From a virus, in the IMG/VR virus record IMGVR_UViG_3300045988_068176, positions 1 to 58,287 of that record: a DNA stretch of 58,287 nucleotides, one strand, 5' to 3'. Every line of letters starts with the position of its first letter. Position 1 is the stretch's first letter. The notes below the pieces were generated by a model. That model had not been told where the DNA came from and made no database searches. It worked only from the letters and a program-made list of their open reading frames with translations. Positions 2,886 through 57,941 of this stretch are shown here, piece by piece. The translations under genes and the position numbers were made by a program.

Positions 2886-3079
2886 TTCCCCTCTCTTTCA
2901 TTCAACAGCTCTTCCAGAGCTTCTTTCACCTTAGCTTCCGCATTTTTAGGTTCGCGCTTACCGTTCAGGATTTTCCCCAAGTATTCCGGTGCGCATCCCA
3001 TTTTTGCAGCAAGCTCTCTGATTTCAATGTTGTTAACGTGAAGCGTCCCTACAACATCGCCTGTCCACTTAGGAAGCAA
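2882..3079 (-). CDS. Cro-like HTH protein
   Basis: 65 aa; TTG start behind AAGGAG; IEIRELAAKMGCAPEYLGKILNG; divergent from the repressor. Confidence 0.65.
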   Translation of the reverse strand: MLPKWTGDVVGTLHVNNIEIRELAAKMGCAPEYLGKILNGKREPKNAEAKVKEALEELLNEREGK

Positions 3080-3096
3080 ATTTTTTCTCCTTTCTT

Positions 3097-3274
3097 GTTC
3101 TAGTACTTGAACTTTTTGAAAGAATATGATAATATTATGGTGTCAAGCAAAAACATTATCGAGCGTTCTTCTATTTGTTCAAAGTCTTTAATTTGTTCTA
3201 CCGATTGAACCCGGTAACCTTATTAAAGCACAAGTAGTAGAACTTTTCAAGTGTTTTTGTTCAAGTGGTAGAAC
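3097..3274. promoter_or_regulatory. divergent switch region with 16-bp operators GTTCwAnnnnnTwGAAC
   Basis: GTTCTAGTACTTGAAC 3097-3112, GTTCTACCGATTGAAC 3195-3210, CAAGTAGTAGAAC 3231-3243, GTTCAAGTGGTAGAAC 3259-3274. Confidence 0.6.
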
Positions 3275-3309
3275 TTCGCCATCTTGTACAAACGCTGGAG
3301 GTATATTTT

Positions 3310-3645
3310 GTGTTTTTTGACAATTTCGTAAGGCTATGTGAGCAAAAGGGAGTAAAGCCGTCTCGTGCTTTGACTGAAGCTGGCGTTCCAAAATCTGCTT
3401 ATAGTTATTGGAGAACCGAAGCAAGTTCAGGGAACGACGCAAAGCCGACCAATCAAAATGCCGTTAAGCTAGCACAGTATTTCGATGTTACGGTTGACTA
3501 CCTTCTCACTGGCAACCAAAAAGAAAACCTGCCCCAGCAGCCGCAAAGTGAAGTCGATGCAGCAGTGGAGCGGATTAGAAGAAAACTTGAATCTATGCCG
3601 AAGGAACAGCGTGAGGCGCTGATGAACCTGATCGAGAAGATGTAA
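3310..3645 (+). CDS. cI-like XRE-family repressor
   Basis: GTG at 3310, 8 nt after GGAGG (3297-3301); FVRLCEQKGVKPSRALTEAGVPKSAYSYW HTH; the track ORF starts at 3265. Confidence 0.75.
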   Translation: MFFDNFVRLCEQKGVKPSRALTEAGVPKSAYSYWRTEASSGNDAKPTNQNAVKLAQYFDVTVDYLLTGNQKENLPQQPQSEVDAAVERIRRKLESMPKEQREALMNLIEKM

Positions 3646-3669
3646 CGTTCATGCCCGGTAAAATAAAAG

Positions 3670-3716
3670 AATCCCTTGTGCCGGGCTGGTGTAGCTCTGC
3701 GCAAGGGATTTTCTGT
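3670..3716. terminator. bidirectional rho-independent terminator
   Basis: AATCCCTTGTG...CGCAAGGGATT stem followed by TTTTCTGTT; A-run on the other side. Confidence 0.6.
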
Positions 3717-3817
3717 TACTCTAAGTCTAATGCTTGTTCCGCTACCGGAATCTTTTCAGGATGTTCCAGCAGCCATGCAATAAATCGGTCAATCTTGGCT
3801 CTTTCCTGTTCACTCAT
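3716..3817 (-). CDS. possible 33-aa ORF
   Basis: MSEQERAKIDRFIAWLLEHPEKIPVAEQALDLE behind GGGAGG; below the track cutoff. Confidence 0.25.
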   Translation of the reverse strand: MSEQERAKIDRFIAWLLEHPEKIPVAEQALDLE

Positions 3818-4003
3818 TGTGACATATCCTCCCGATCGGTAAGTGCAGATGTTCATTTGATACGATTATACATCTTTTAGTTGTCAAGTCAATGTATTTT
3901 GAACAACTTCGTGAAAATCGAACGTTTTCTTCACATCTATTACTTCACATCAGGGAAGCCAAAAATTGCAATGACAATGATTAAGAGCCACATTAAGTTT
4001 AAG

Positions 4004-4249
4004 TTACCCTTTGCTTTGTAACATTCCGTTGAGAATGGAACGAAAGGGGTTTTCAGGCAACTTGTCCAGCACATCTGCTTTGACGAGCGCATTTGTGCTG
4101 ATACTGTGCGAAACATTGTTTAGTTGCACAATGGCATCGTCCAAGTCTTTTACGGTTGCTCCACGCCGTTCCATTAACTGGAGGAAAGTTTTCACTTCTT
4201 CAAGAACGACAGGGTTCTCGACTTTATAGAATCCATTCGTAAAGTCCAT
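4004..4249 (-). CDS. hypothetical protein
   Basis: 81-aa ORF, last gene of a small minus-strand operon. Confidence 0.55.
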   Translation of the reverse strand: MDFTNGFYKVENPVVLEEVKTFLQLMERRGATVKDLDDAIVQLNNVSHSISTNALVKADVLDKLPENPFRSILNGMLQSKG

Positions 4250-53640: not shown

Positions 53641-53815
53641 TTTTTTCTCCTTTCAGCCAGTCGTTCAGCTTTGCCATGCAAGAGGGGCAAAGGCGATACT
53701 CGTAGTCACACGGAACACCAATACCCCACACACGCATCTCAATGTCGGTGAAATTGTTATATTCGTATAAAGGATACGTCTCTCCGCATCTATCACACTT
53801 AAGTGCCTCTCCCAT
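53633..53815 (-). CDS. zinc-ribbon protein
   Basis: CDRCG...CPSC. Confidence 0.5.
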   Translation of the reverse strand: MGEALKCDRCGETYPLYEYNNFTDIEMRVWGIGVPCDYEYRLCPSCMAKLNDWLKGEKSE

Positions 53816-54332
53816 GTTCTTTCTCCAATCTCTTTAGCAGCCCGTCCACGTCATACCGCCAATGGACACGCAACCTTTTTGCTTTGACCTCTATCCCCTC
53901 TTGCTCTGCCCACTGCCAAGGGATGCTCTTGCGGCTCTCGTTGTAACGGAACGCCAGAACCTTGCTGGCAGGGATTGCAAAGGTGCGGTCGACCGCCCTG
54001 TAATTTACTATCACATGGGCGGTCTGACCGCCGTACCCCATCGCATCCACCATGTCAGTGATGTGCTTTTCCTTGCGGTATTTGCACTTTGCCTTGTCGT
54101 ACTTACCGAACACCTTTTCCAGAGGGATAGAGGGCGTTTCTATGGTTTTCAGTTCAAACAGGTGGTTCATCGGGTATCGGTACACAAGGAAGTCGCAGAT
54201 GTTATCGATGGAAAAGGACAGGTTCTCGTTGCCGCCGTAGTAGGTGGCGGCACTGTCTTTCAGCCGGTAGCACCACGCATCGGATGGGACGGATGCTTTG
54301 AAGTCTGCTTCAAACTGCTTGCCGGTGTTCAT
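53799..54332 (-). CDS. recU: RecU-like Holliday junction resolvase (PD-(D/E)xK)
   Basis: GKQFEADFKAS...ICDFLVY...LFELKT motif order. Confidence 0.7.
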   Translation of the reverse strand: MNTGKQFEADFKASVPSDAWCYRLKDSAATYYGGNENLSFSIDNICDFLVYRYPMNHLFELKTIETPSIPLEKVFGKYDKAKCKYRKEKHITDMVDAMGYGGQTAHVIVNYRAVDRTFAIPASKVLAFRYNESRKSIPWQWAEQEGIEVKAKRLRVHWRYDVDGLLKRLEKEHGRGT

Positions 54333-54811: not shown

Positions 54812-55027
54812 TTATCGTTCACCTCTAAATTCACTTCCGAGAAACCGCTTTTTTCCACGTTCCCGGTGCTTGTCCTCGTAGTTGCGGTGGTACACGCTCT
54901 GGCTGTTGTTAAGCTCATGCACAAACGCCTTGCGCTCCTCGAAGTCTTTCTTCTCTTCCTTGTACTTCTCGCAAGTGTCGTGGCAAGCTGTGCAGCGTGA
55001 TTCGCAGTTGAGACAACAGGTAATCAT
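54812..55027 (-). CDS. Cys-rich small protein
   Basis: MITCCLNCESRCTACHDTCEKY. Confidence 0.5.
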   Translation of the reverse strand: MITCCLNCESRCTACHDTCEKYKEEKKDFEERKAFVHELNNSQSVYHRNYEDKHRERGKKRFLGSEFRGER

Positions 55028-56664
55028 TCTTCGCCAAATCTCCTTTTTGTGACGGCAATGCAGAAGCTATCAACTTCGCTCGCCCATCGTGCCGTACCGT
55101 TTCCATAGGTCTTTTGCCAGATAAGCGGGAAGCCACCTATACCATCGAACAGACTTCCTAGCGTGGCATTTTTGACCAGATAAGGTTTCATCTTCTGTGC
55201 AATCCAGAACCACTGCGGTAGAGCAATGCTGTTTCCGAGTGCCTTGTACCGTGGACTGTCAGCGGACTTATGCTTTTTTCCTTTGGTGTCTGTCCACTCG
55301 CCAATGTCAGTCCATCCGCTCGGGTAGCCCTGCAACCGTTCACACTCAACAGGTGTCAAGCGGCGAACAATCCAGCGGACGTTTTTCTCTGCAACCAGGC
55401 ATTCGCTGCCATTGCCGATGTTTCCTGCTTTCGCTTTCAAGGTTGAGCATTTTCCACTTTCCTTATAGTGGCTGAAAGACTGTTCGTTGAAGGTATTACG
55501 TTCGATAGCGATAGCTGTGTAGTCTGTGATTCTGTTTTGGTGGTCGCCTGTGATTATCGGCGCTATCTGGCCGTCGCCATTTCCTTGTGCATTAAATATT
55601 TTTCTTTCCGTGACCATTGGAACATACCCGCCGCCAAGACCCATGCTTGCTGGAAGCGTTGGGCAGATGCCGGTCTGTGAAACCGTTGCATGGACTTGGT
55701 TACTTTCCAAGACTATCGGTTGTGCATTGCTTTCAAACACGATAGGTTGGTGTCCGTGTTCCGCTGCTCGCAATGTCCCCGTCATGTTATAGGACACGCT
55801 CATCGCCCCTCCGCCTTGGTCATTTAAGACGGGAATCGCTTGGAAAAGCGTCTGGTCTTGGAGCGTCGATAGCGTTCCGACTTTTTCTGTTTGCACAAGT
55901 GCGCCCTTTCCTCCTCCGGCACAGCCAGAGCGGATTTTAAGAGAGTACGCAGCTGCTTCTCTGCTTTCTCTCTTATCCGTTCCTTCCTCTCGTTCAGAGC
56001 AGTCAGCTTCTCTCGTCTTATCCGTTTCTGTTCTTCTGCAATCAGCATCTCCATCGCCTTTGCGGCCGCGCCCGGCTCCCACCATTCGATCATTTCCAGC
56101 AGGGCGGTTTGCAGCAAGTCCGGCAATTTCTTTCCACGTCGGGATGCACGGATCAGGATACCTTGACAGGCTCGTGCGCTCAAATAATATTTCTCCGGCG
56201 CGTTGGCCTCCAAGGTCGATGATAAGAGCGATACGTTTTCTACGCTGGGCCACTCCGAAATATTGACTGTCGAGCTGTCTCCAAGCCAAGCTCCATCCGT
56301 CTCCTGAGATTGCTCCGGCTTTGCTCCATCTGCCCTTTCTACTCGAAGGTCTAGGAATTGAAGCGTCTGGTTGTTCCACGCGGGCAAGTTCTTCCAGCAC
56401 GGCTCTGAAATCTTCTCCGTTGTTGCTGGAAAAGACCCCTGGTACGTTTTCCCAAATAGCGAAAGTTGGATACATTCCATTGGTTGCTGCCCTCATTTCT
56501 TTTATGATTCGAACCGCTTCCATGAACAACCCGGATCGTTCTCCCGCAAGTCCCGCCCTGCGTCCCGCAATGGACAAATCCTGGCACGGACTGCCGAACG
56601 TGATGCAATCCACAGGTTCTATCTGGTCTCCGTGAATCTTTGCAATGTCGCCCAAGTGCTTCAT
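55024..56664 (-). CDS. dcm: DNA cytosine-5 methyltransferase, circularly permuted (motifs IV-X then I-II)
   Basis: GSPCQDLS (IV), WENVPG (VI), QRRKRIALI (VIII), ECERLQGYP and LGNSIALP (IX/X), then C-terminal LFDGIGGFPL (I) and WASEVD (II). Confidence 0.85.
   Translation of the reverse strand: MKHLGDIAKIHGDQIEPVDCITFGSPCQDLSIAGRRAGLAGERSGLFMEAVRIIKEMRAATNGMYPTFAIWENVPGVFSSNNGEDFRAVLEELARVEQPDASIPRPSSRKGRWSKAGAISGDGWSLAWRQLDSQYFGVAQRRKRIALIIDLGGQRAGEILFERTSLSRYPDPCIPTWKEIAGLAANRPAGNDRMVGAGRGRKGDGDADCRRTETDKTREADCSEREEGTDKRESREAAAYSLKIRSGCAGGGKGALVQTEKVGTLSTLQDQTLFQAIPVLNDQGGGAMSVSYNMTGTLRAAEHGHQPIVFESNAQPIVLESNQVHATVSQTGICPTLPASMGLGGGYVPMVTERKIFNAQGNGDGQIAPIITGDHQNRITDYTAIAIERNTFNEQSFSHYKESGKCSTLKAKAGNIGNGSECLVAEKNVRWIVRRLTPVECERLQGYPSGWTDIGEWTDTKGKKHKSADSPRYKALGNSIALPQWFWIAQKMKPYLVKNATLGSLFDGIGGFPLIWQKTYGNGTARWASEVDSFCIAVTKRRFGEE
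55824..56480 (-). CDS. 218-codon ORF embedded in the +1 frame of the methyltransferase gene
   Basis: GAGGG then 9 nt then ATG. SLFGKT...NISEWPSVENVSLLSSTLEANAPEKYYLSARACQGILIRASRRGKKLP resembles a module I recall from MTase-associated proteins. Confidence 0.4.
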   Translation of the reverse strand: MECIQLSLFGKTYQGSFPATTEKISEPCWKNLPAWNNQTLQFLDLRVERADGAKPEQSQETDGAWLGDSSTVNISEWPSVENVSLLSSTLEANAPEKYYLSARACQGILIRASRRGKKLPDLLQTALLEMIEWWEPGAAAKAMEMLIAEEQKRIRREKLTALNERKERIREKAEKQLRTLLKSALAVPEEERAHLCKQKKSERYRRSKTRRFSKRFPS

Positions 56665-56732
56665 CTTTCCAAACGCCCGTTTAGCCAGATAGCGCAGCTC
56701 TTATATAAGGTAGGCGGTCAATGCCTTACAGG

Positions 56733-57305
56733 TCAGAATGGCAGCGAACCATCCGGCTCTTCAATCACAGAGAAGTCATCGTTCCCGCCCTGCGAGTAGC
56801 CAGAGCCAGACCCACCAGCCAGCGTTTTCTTCTGTCTGACCTCATAGTCGCCGGAACGAATCTTGTCCACGCTGGTGAAGCGGTCAACGACAAGCTTCGT
56901 CTTGACGTTGCCATCGTTGCCCATGTACTCTTCCTCGCGGAGAACCACGCCGACCAGCTTGCCACGCAGGGTCTTTTCATCGTTGTTGAACTTGTAGCCG
57001 GGATTGGACTGCTCCACAGCGGTGATAAATCCCTTGAAGAACGGCAGCGCCTTCTCTTTGTAGCTCTTGATGGTCTTGCCGCCCCATGCCCATTCGCCCG
57101 GGTTCAGCTTGCCGCACTCGATAAGGGAAGCGGTCTGCTCACGCCAGTAGCCCTTGAACTCGCCCTCTGTGATTTCCCACTCGATGTTCAGGCGTTCCTT
57201 TGCGGGTTCGTCCGTTGCCTTGCAGATACCGGCAACATAGCCGCCAACAGGCAGGGCACGGCGTTCGGTGGCTTCCTGTACGTCATTCCAGTTGATGTTC
57301 TTCAT
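56733..57305 (-). CDS. ssb: single-stranded DNA-binding protein (DUF669/gp2.5-like) with acidic tail
   Basis: 190 aa; C-terminus GNDDFSVIEEPDGSLPF; adjacent to the Sak4-like ATPase. Confidence 0.65.
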   Translation of the reverse strand: MKNINWNDVQEATERRALPVGGYVAGICKATDEPAKERLNIEWEITEGEFKGYWREQTASLIECGKLNPGEWAWGGKTIKSYKEKALPFFKGFITAVEQSNPGYKFNNDEKTLRGKLVGVVLREEEYMGNDGNVKTKLVVDRFTSVDKIRSGDYEVRQKKTLAGGSGSGYSQGGNDDFSVIEEPDGSLPF

Positions 57306-57308
57306 CTG

Positions 57309-57941
57309 TTACTCTCCTTTGTTATCCGGCTGAACCGGGATGTTGTAATACTCACGGATGGTCTTGTCTACGGTGGCGAGGTCGTTCTCGATCAGCGCAT
57401 CGTTGAACATCCCAAGGGGGGTTTTCACGGTGTCCATCCCATCATTGCGAGTGCTGAACAGGTATCGCCCATCCTGCACAACGGTTTTCAGAACGATGGT
57501 AAAGTACCCTTCCACGCAGACCTTTTCGTCCAGTAGCTTTCCGATGGTTTTAAACTTCTCGCCACCGTCTCCGTCACGCTCGCTGTGACCGAAAAAGTAG
57601 ACCACAACATCGTCCGGCAGTTCCTTTGCCCGCATCAGCAGAGCGTTGAAGTTGGCTGCCATGTCGGTAAACTTCTGGTATCCAGCGACCTTTGCGTTCC
57701 GCATGAACTCGCCAGTCATAAGGTAGGTGGCATCGTCAATGACGATGGACTTACGCTTGGTGCTGTGGATTGCGGCATCAATCTTGCCGTAGTCGTTGGT
57801 GATATAGGTTTTCATGTTGTTGCGGAACGGCAGCGGCTTGCCAAGCACGTTGATGACTGCAACCTGTTCCGGGTCAAAGTTCCGAAGCGAAGCGGACTTA
57901 CCGCTGCCGGAGTGACCGTAGACCATTACTAATACTGCCAT
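57309..57941 (-). CDS. Sak4-like/AAA_24 recombination ATPase
   Basis: VMVYGHSGSGKSAS Walker A; IVIDDATYL Walker B. Confidence 0.75.
   Translation of the reverse strand: MAVLVMVYGHSGSGKSASLRNFDPEQVAVINVLGKPLPFRNNMKTYITNDYGKIDAAIHSTKRKSIVIDDATYLMTGEFMRNAKVAGYQKFTDMAANFNALLMRAKELPDDVVVYFFGHSERDGDGGEKFKTIGKLLDEKVCVEGYFTIVLKTVVQDGRYLFSTRNDGMDTVKTPLGMFNDALIENDLATVDKTIREYYNIPVQPDNKGE

Follow-up and report, generated by a model that had tools for sequence, protein, structure and literature searches.

The window analysed here is a stretch of 58,287 nucleotides of viral DNA (IMG/VR record IMGVR_UViG_3300045988_068176, positions 1 to 58,287). Towards its end, the minus strand carries an open reading frame (ORF) of 546 amino acids (55024..56664) that is identified as a C5-cytosine methyltransferase (MTase) by its matches to PF00145, TIGR00675 and a family-specific hidden Markov model (HMM), but that contains the motifs of this family in a permuted order. 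The initial annotation had claimed a 546-aa ORF with motifs I and II at the C-terminus; the ORF is present as claimed, and the strand, which had not been given, can be added. The protein begins with MKHLGDIAKIHG and ends with AVTKRRFGEE. The new N-terminus comprises HLGDI of the motif III region (residues 3-7) and the catalytic motif IV, FGSPCQDLS (residues 23-31, with Cys27; together 56572..56658, minus strand like all features below). It is followed by motif VI, WENVPG (residues 71-76, 56437..56454, from coordinates and alignment), and motif VIII, QRRKRIALI (residues 140-148, 56221..56247). Then comes a variable region (55375..56172), delimited by comparison of relatives, of repeated TL-containing cassettes that resemble target-recognition domains (TRDs), for example YSLKIRSGCAGGGKGALVQTEKVGTLSTLQDQTLF (55843..55947). 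The region of motifs IX and X (55216..55365) contains RRLTPVECERLQGYP as motif IX (residues 434-448, 55321..55365) and LGNSIALP as motif X (residues 476-483, 55216..55239). The linker KPYLVKNAT (55162..55188) leads from the motif X helix to strand beta-1, that is, from the former C-terminus to the former N-terminus, and opens into the relocated S-adenosylmethionine (SAM)-binding module (55027..55161), which consists of motif I, LGSLFDGIGGFPL (residues 502-514, 55123..55161), motif II, WASEVD (residues 527-532, 55069..55086), and the C-terminal tail.

All of the C5-MTase motifs are present, namely IV (the Cys of PCQ), VI (ENV), VIII (QxRxR), I (FxGxG), II (an acidic residue), IX and X, but they are read in the order III-IV-VI-VIII-TRD-IX-X-I-II instead of the canonical linear order I to X. 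The protein is a topological variant of the PF00145/TIGR00675 family and is not excluded from it. PF00145 matched the whole ORF with 119.5 bits (E=2.8e-34; cutoff 22), the N-terminus entering the model at position 46, and TIGR00675 matched with 105.5 bits (E=4.3e-30; cutoff 100.65). The N-terminus is alignable to M.HhaI from residue 58 onward and to M.HaeIII from residue 49 onward, i.e. past motifs I and II. The initial annotation had named hits of a C-5 MTase HMM in swapped order as a check of its claim. Such hits were found with an HMM built from three canonical relatives (of Ruminococcus phage NatCom_23091, Terrisporobacter phage TPDSL_ph1 and Streptococcus phage Javan105): residues 1-182 correspond to HMM positions 49-226 (E=2e-80) and residues 498-543 to positions 3-46 (E=3.4e-12). 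The five hits are colinear and then wrap around, three weaker hits in the middle spanning the TRD and motifs IX and X. The Pfam coordinates agree, and the last 79 residues alone match PF00145 positions 4-43 (E=5.8e-4). The circular permutation was likewise borne out when the C-terminal 49 aa were placed in front of the N-terminal 100 aa: the de-permuted junction aligned in one piece, over residues 1-149 and with 57-64% identity, with ordinary C5-MTases of many Firmicutes phages, among them phages of Ruminococcus, Terrisporobacter and Streptococcus, while records of Toutatis-like phages matched it at residues 44/47-149 only. The canonical relatives read ...LGSLFDGSGGFPL...WASEIEPFPI(A/R)VTTKRLP.(M/V)KHLGDI... 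across this region. The swapped order of the HMM hits and the contiguous alignment of the junction place the breakpoint in the loop between motifs II and III; as far as alignments go, they directly show an almost unit-length circular permutation that is broken at canonical residues ~46 to 49.

The permuted MTase family is widespread and not unique to the window; its layout goes far beyond what chance would give and recurs in hundreds of assemblies that are independent of one another. Seventeen proteins were inspected among the best 120 clusters of the protein databases (66-95% identity, 428-669 aa); the I-II module forms the end of 16 of them, the exception being a truncated record, nearly all begin with MKHLGDI, and most are encoded on contigs of 50-60 kb. 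In none of 80 IMG/VR loci (46-95% identity) is motif I located upstream of motif IV, and the cultured Faecalibacterium phages FP_Toutatis and Lelie have the identical permuted layout. Genomes were scanned, one for each species, with the IX-X-I-II module, whose parts adjoin only in permuted enzymes; 207 stretches across Clostridia were retrieved. Eighty loci were kept, 72 of which contain an ORF with motif IX before motif I that ends 28-58 (mostly 38-48) residues past the start of motif I. Carriers include Faecalibacterium tardum, Gemmiger gallinarum, Bittarella massiliensis, Oscillibacter, Christensenella, Lachnospiraceae and many metagenome-assembled genomes (MAGs). A copy also resides on a bacterial replicon, a 214-kb 'plasmid' of Subdoligranulum variabile (L092, OY725880, locus ~2930..4150), and the family is therefore not limited to free phage genomes; the MTase is shorter there, and the embedded ORF described below is also open. 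Some related phages, e.g. NatCom_9287, contain adjacent MTase copies.

Selection acts on both parts of the permuted protein. At codon positions 1/2/3, nucleotide diversity amounts to 0.09/0.05/0.41 in residues 1-61 and to 0.07/0.05/0.42 in the helix of motif X. In the relocated I-II module it is 0.10/0.07/0.52, a mark of strong purifying selection. The 9-residue linker between motifs X and I is variable at every codon position (0.32/0.29/0.53), as expected of a loop that was made by the fusion of termini. Among 43 relatives, none of the catalytic and SAM-binding residues varies, including G503-L514 and A528-E530 (FDGxGGFPL and ASE). The relatives differ mainly by the gain and loss of TL-containing TRD-like cassettes, which accounts for their wide range of lengths (441-669 aa) and suggests a modular, possibly multispecific target recognition. 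Two relatives (P0018 and P0022) have an insertion of 16 aa, KTIYDGRTGNVLRIGT, directly before the arginines of motif VIII (YWG...PQRRKR).

A second ORF of 218 aa (MECIQLSLFGKT..., 55824..56480) is embedded in the MTase gene on the same strand, in the +1 frame. Its N-terminal ~85 aa are disordered; a three-helix unit (56079..56225) comes next and is extended by a coiled coil (55926..56069), and the tail is basic. Peptides such as ACQGILIR and LPDLLQTALLEMIEWWEPGAAAK occur in the sequence. Its ATG is located at MTase residue 62, with the Shine-Dalgarno (SD)-like motif GAGGG 9 nt upstream. The +1 frame is stop-free for 222 codons, a length that was reached by 6 of 2000 synonymous shuffles. From MTase residue ~56 onward, the diversity at position 3 of the main frame drops from ~0.43 to 0.13-0.28. 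In codons 46-85 past the first of the two tract sites discussed below, the pattern is inverted, with values of 0.26-0.39 at main position 1, which is position 3 of the +1 frame, and of 0.07-0.16 at main position 3. In the helical part of the embedded ORF, substitutions peak at position 3 of its own frame and are lowest at its position 2. The comparison with the canonical relatives gave a corresponding picture: across motifs VI to VIII the identity is 54-56% in the MTase frame and 32-38% in the +1 frame, whereas the linker after motif VIII is less conserved in the MTase frame (33-37%) than in the +1 frame (60-63%). The embedded +1 frame is under its own purifying selection. It is open in every relative; in the canonical relatives from Streptococcus, Terrisporobacter and Ruminococcus phages, it is so for 133-135 codons and has the same motifs. 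The embedded protein has 1044 close database homologues, and an exhaustive search retrieved 2982 representative clusters, 635 of them with E≤1e-10. Based on a diverse alignment, AlphaFold predicted residues 1-85 to be disordered and residues 86-134 to form a three-helix unit, the latter at a predicted local distance difference test (pLDDT) score of ~95.

The closest relatives (L003 and L004) lack a purine-rich insertion of 41 codons (55951..56073), whose MTase-frame reading is GRGRKGDGDADCRRTETDKTREADCSEREEGTDKRESREAA and whose +1-frame reading is the coiled coil AAAKAMEMLIAEEQKRIRREKLTALNERKERIREKAEKQL. In the carriers, the diversity at +1-frame positions 1/2/3 of the insertion is 0.09/0.12/0.25 and the amino-acid identity is 85% in the +1 frame versus 70% in the MTase frame; after the insertion, selection returns to the MTase frame at AYSLKIRSG. 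The possibility that this low-complexity insertion is part of the TRD was rejected, since selection acts on the +1 frame there. The long target-recognition region of the initial annotation can be retained as regards the TRD-like cassettes, but a second gene in the +1 frame had been missed within it, and the low-complexity insertion belongs to that gene. It should be noted that gene callers choose the +1-frame ORF plus a shortened C-terminal piece of the MTase, even at loci with an open full-length MTase frame (L005-L008, P0121-P0240). Because of this preference, more than 1000 clusters carry the label 'hypothetical protein' and the MTase receives a wrong annotation. The embedded protein is presumably expressed and functional. 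Our best guess, which derives from fusion architectures only, is that it might serve as an adaptor or DNA-contact domain for the chain that bears the TRDs.

The relatives differ from the window in that they contain two poly-G tracts of G6-G14 (L001-L088 and L094-L173), T1 and T2, and all of their frame breaks fall at these two runs. T1 is located between motifs VI and VIII (56326..56352), where the window has the degraded sequence AGTAGAAAGGGCAGATGG (RPSSRKGRW), and T2 before the first TRD cassette (equivalent to ~56071..56097 of the window), where the window carries the insertion. The MTase is in frame in the 42 loci in which T1 is G7 or G10, and also in the nine loci, including the window, in which T1 is interrupted or absent. 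With G8 or G14 (20 loci, and four others in that frame state) the MTase is truncated and the start of the embedded ORF is in frame with motifs VII-X-I-II, and with G6, G9 or G12 (eight loci) motifs III-VI are fused to the C-terminal part of the embedded protein. At T2, changes in length (G8/G9 in L083, L085 and L086, and G7 in L066 versus G6 in L017) fuse the embedded protein in full to TRD-IX-X-I-II. Fusions of the embedded protein with the TRD are common in databases, in the permuted and in the canonical type alike; in a contig of the canonical type (L093), the ORF with motifs I-VIII ends right after a G8 tract and the embedded ORF continues into TRD-IX-X. The split, two-subunit state occurs in L083, L085, L086, L066, L093, L094 and P0305/P0370, whereas the window has one ORF.

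Within the Toutatis lineage, tracts of G7, G8, G9 (Toutatis), G10, G12 and G14 (Lelie) are found between flanks that are 100% identical. Two GenBank coding sequences (CDSs) annotated 'DNA-cytosine methyltransferase' in FP_Toutatis (L001, MG711466, 6463..7874) are one permuted gene that is broken at G9, and the tract of Lelie (L002, PP479942) at this site is G14, between flanks that do not differ. Among 72 copies in bacterial genomes, 31 of the 38 that are free of tracts are intact, and ~27 of the 34 that have tracts are shifted at a tract. This polymorphism looks like slipped-strand phase variation. The varying homopolymer is a property of the relatives and not of the window, which has AGTAGAAAGGGC at T1 and the insertion at T2. 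Having lost both tracts, the window is locked as a single-chain MTase plus a putative free 218-aa protein.

The known natural permutations of C5-MTases are of a different kind. The breakpoints of M.BssHII, M.Alw26I, M2.Eco31I, M.Esp3I, M2.BsaI and another 22 entries of REBASE all fall within the variable region, and as of 2018 no natural permutation outside this region had been found (PMC5944983, Slaska-Kiss et al. 2018), in agreement with the statement of the initial annotation that the known permuted enzymes break elsewhere. The M.BssHII-type enzymes (Type H/J) resemble the window enzyme in that motif X precedes motif I, and they presumably arose by duplication and truncation. However, their N-terminus lies in the variable region and their order is IX-X-I-VIII, whereas the window enzyme begins at canonical residue 49, has motifs IV-VIII before the TRD, is broken between motifs II and III, and has only motifs I and II moved. 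A much closer likeness exists to the engineered 'Class B' permutants, which likewise begin between motifs II and III and in which the fused termini connect motif X to motifs I and II. These were the most active permutants made; cp62M.MpeI, with a II/III breakpoint, had an activity comparable to the wild type, direct fusion of the native termini had no adverse effect, tandem fusions were active, and M.HaeIII permutants obtained by directed evolution also began at II/III (PMC5944983). The Class B enzymes were made in the laboratory from CG-specific mycoplasma enzymes or from M.HaeIII, whereas the window enzyme belongs to a natural, widespread family known from sequence, and it differs by a natural linker of nine residues, several TRD-like cassettes and the embedded overlapping gene. 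Thus, it is the natural counterpart of a topology that has so far been reported only from the laboratory.

The split state of the relatives also has precedents. Its laboratory counterpart is a pair of fragments, Mpe[62-279] + Mpe[280-61], that came together again as an active enzyme (PMC5944983). M.AquI, as cited in that paper, is a natural two-subunit C5-MTase with motifs I-VIII in the alpha and TRD-IX-X in the beta subunit, in contrast to the single chain of the window. In the split relatives, unlike in M.AquI, poly-G toggles the split, and the second chain opens with a conserved ~135-aa domain that is read in the +1 frame of the DNA for motifs VI-VIII.

Three further groups of enzymes invite comparison. 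In the plant enzyme DRM2, which is eukaryotic and works as a dimer, motifs VI-X precede motifs I-V; its motif IV region aligned at the C-terminus of the catalytic domains of known structure (residues ~304-351 of 352-357), which is consistent with that order. DRM2 thus shares a rearranged motif order with the window enzyme, with a different breakpoint. Phasevarions depend on phase-variable methyltransferases that are driven by simple sequence repeats, and poly-G genes of this kind are known from Campylobacter, Neisseria and Helicobacter. The relatives of the window resemble them in that a G tract lies inside the MTase ORF, varies in length between otherwise identical genomes and sets the frame; they differ in that the two tracts are phage- or prophage-borne, reside in a C5-MTase of gut Clostridia, and join a conserved overlapping gene in the off-frames. 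The multispecific C5-MTases of Bacillus phages (SPbeta, phi3T, rho11s) have the canonical order and several tandem TRDs, each with a TL dipeptide, and are likened by their layout to the window family, in which TL-containing TRD modules are gained or lost between relatives. In the literature, no paper on a natural II/III-permuted C5-MTase was found (REBASE was not queried, and newer entries may exist), nor one on a phase-variable phage C5-MTase or on an overlapping gene within a C5-MTase; a preprint on Toutatisvirus hyper-variability deals with a diversity-generating retroelement (DGR) island elsewhere in the genome.

The MTase gene is separated from the upstream gene by a leader of 68 nt (56665..56732), in which the upstream TAA is followed by 12 in-frame codons, ELRYLAKRAFGK, and then by the MTase ATG. 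The initial annotation had regarded these codons as a relic of the old N-terminal module. The 12 codons between TAA and ATG do exist, but the resemblance to the C-terminal tail is weak. The upstream RYLAKRAFGK, compared with the protein's own tail IAVTKRRFGE, scores better than 99.7% of shuffles (BLOSUM score, P ~0.003), a value that concerns ~10 residues in a register picked after the fact; against canonical tails the similarity is modest (P=0.02-0.2), and at the DNA level 7 of 36 nucleotides are identical. Relic and tail both sit immediately before an ATG, and a shared initiation context is an alternative account of the resemblance. The similarity scores provide weak support for the view that the codons might be a relic of the old motif II tail.

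On the downstream side, the ATG of a Cys-rich ORF of 71 aa (MITCCLNCESRCTACHDTCEKY..., 54812..55027) overlaps the MTase stop codon (ATGA), and an AAGGAG SD motif lies within the last MTase codons. This arrangement indicates translational coupling and makes the position of the MTase stop a settled feature. The Cys-rich ORF is conserved in L003, L004 and L008 and has no match in Pfam or PHROGs. In L018 and L019, the MTase ORF extends ~30 residues beyond its usual end (tail ...EGNSGTVLCGGNCQCHKSCGDAETH) and may run into the Cys-rich ORF. The neighbours are a weakly RecU-like protein (53799..54332), a phrog_18107 protein (56733..57305) and an AAA_24 ATPase (57309..57941), which places the MTase in a replication/recombination module. 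A scan for promoters and terminators identified no minus-strand site near the MTase gene. An effect of the contig end was considered and rejected, as the gene is located 1.6 kb from the end of the window with unrelated genes on both sides.

Taken together, it is very probable that the locus encodes a genuine, naturally circularly permuted C5-MTase of a gut Oscillospiraceae (Faecalibacterium-type) phage, with an older second gene nested in it and with tract switching in its relatives. The permuted enzyme would be derived from a canonical Dcm-like family of phages and integrative and conjugative elements (ICEs). The most economical origin would be a tandem duplication of the canonical gene, followed by the loss of the first I-II copy and of the second III-X copy. 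The polypeptide starts just before motif III (HLGDI), and the beta1-alphaA-beta2 SAM module follows the motif X helix via the short variable linker and would close the MTase fold from the C-terminal side, yielding an enzyme that is presumably catalytically active. The several TL-containing cassettes would enable it to recognize more than one target sequence, and its likely role would be the protection of phage DNA from host restriction. The second, older gene is nested in the +1 frame in such a way that the structured part of each protein overlies an unconstrained part of the other: the disordered N-terminus of the embedded protein lies over motifs VI-VIII, and its three-helix unit over the inter-domain linker of the MTase. 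The poly-G tracts flank the embedded helical region, and slippage in the relatives would generate three states: an intact single-chain enzyme plus the free small protein; truncated, presumably inactive products; or an enzyme split in two, whose TRD-IX-X-I-II chain has the embedded protein as its N-terminal domain.

Switching between these states may be adaptive. Methylation would protect the phage in hosts with classical restriction, but would be lethal in hosts with methylation-dependent restriction, and a mixture of variants could thus be a form of bet-hedging. The II/III permutation would put the SAM-binding module on the TRD chain, and neither chain of the split form could be dispensed with. 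It is a tentative idea, and one that may well prove wrong, that phages and prophages of gut Clostridia possess a widespread, undescribed coding device of this kind, in which tract slippage continuously yields single-chain, two-chain and off variants and of which the window would be a frozen example.

Several results weigh against this interpretation and have to be set against the alternatives. The C-terminal module alone scores 19.8 bits, slightly below the Pfam gathering threshold of 22, and a phmmer search with the 55-aa module yielded only chance matches among PDB sequences (E>1). The AlphaFold2 model of the full-length MTase has a mean pLDDT of 31.6, with a shallow alignment of 43 sequences of 74-95% identity. 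About one third of the viral relatives and more than one third of the bacterial copies are frame-shifted, so that the family also tolerates the loss of the single-chain enzyme, and the relic test lends the duplication-deletion origin weak support. The poor model and the shifted copies could be taken to mean that the gene is an inactive remnant, be it a decaying pseudogene or a non-catalytic DNA-binding protein, in which the I-II piece is a leftover second copy that does not fold back. This is very unlikely, because the I-II module evolves under constraint with its FDGxGGFPL and ASE residues invariant, all catalytic motifs are intact, tract-free copies in genomes are mostly intact, and the shifts are confined to hypermutable tracts and are apparently reversible (G7 and G10 are both in frame) instead of being scattered lesions; in addition, engineered enzymes of the II/III topology are fully active (PMC5944983). 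Still further from plausibility is an assembly artefact, i.e. a collapsed tandem duplication or a mis-joined conventional MTase gene. A mis-joined tandem repeat could indeed produce the observed motif order, and the window is a single assembled sequence. However, the same architecture recurs, at 47-95% identity, in more than 120 protein clusters, 80 IMG/VR contigs, Toutatis, Lelie, isolate genomes and many MAGs, both halves of the MTase are under purifying selection, and the gene is framed by an unrelated gene 68 nt upstream and by the coupled start codon at its stop, which together make an artefact practically inconceivable.

The nested gene and the tracts raise questions of their own. The +1-frame ORF might not be a gene at all but a by-product of the codon and amino-acid composition of the MTase that is wrongly picked by gene callers. 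The +1 frame of the MTase is naturally stop-poor (the shuffles are open for 106 codons on average), its conservation is partly forced by MTase motifs (FGKT lies opposite WENV, and SLSQIL opposite IALVADF), and the first 85 residues are predicted to be disordered. The protein has no match in Pfam or NCBIfam, and no homology to a known domain or fold was detected; a Foldseek search of its model against the PDB returned nothing below E=4, and PHROGs gave only a weak match, to phrog_16143 (annotated 'DNA methyltransferase', E=6e-4). Nevertheless, this view is highly doubtful, as it is at odds with the reversed substitution pattern in the helical part and in the insertion, with helices that are better conserved among canonical relatives than the MTase linker on the same DNA, with the open frame in phages of three host genera, with the fall in position 3 diversity just upstream of an ATG that is preceded by an SD-like motif, with the confidently predicted helical unit, and with the in-frame fusion of the embedded protein as N-terminal domain of TRD-IX-X proteins. 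As to the tracts, homopolymers are prone to error and the lengths were read from assembled consensus sequences, not from reads. Slippery G runs could, moreover, allow recoding, so that 'shifted' alleles remain functional. It is unlikely, however, that the differences in length are sequencing or assembly errors, or that they reflect programmed ribosomal or transcriptional slippage instead of phase variation at the DNA level, although recoding may occur in addition to variation of the DNA. Six lengths between identical flanks come from independent samples and two cultured phages, each frame state also occurs as independent protein clusters, tract length tracks the frame state, and copies without tracts are in frame (all nine viral loci with T1 interrupted or absent, and most of the tract-free bacterial copies).

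Until now, natural permutation of C5-MTases had seemed limited to the variable region, and a large II/III family extends this. Evolution has reached the same topology that protein engineers found to be best tolerated, and the natural series of canonical, permuted and split enzymes provides material for studying the origin of new topologies. One practical consequence is that public gene calls systematically mis-annotate permuted MTase loci. The overlapping gene and the frame-switching tracts make the locus more interesting than the initial annotation had it. If translated, the embedded gene would be an unusually widespread case of a long same-strand overlapping gene in phages and bacteria, and its product would be a new domain tied to DNA methylation. 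If switching of the tracts takes place in the DNA itself, gut phages would possess a phase-variable epigenetic switch of their own, which would have a bearing on phage host range, on the evasion of restriction in the microbiome and on the interpretation of methylome data.

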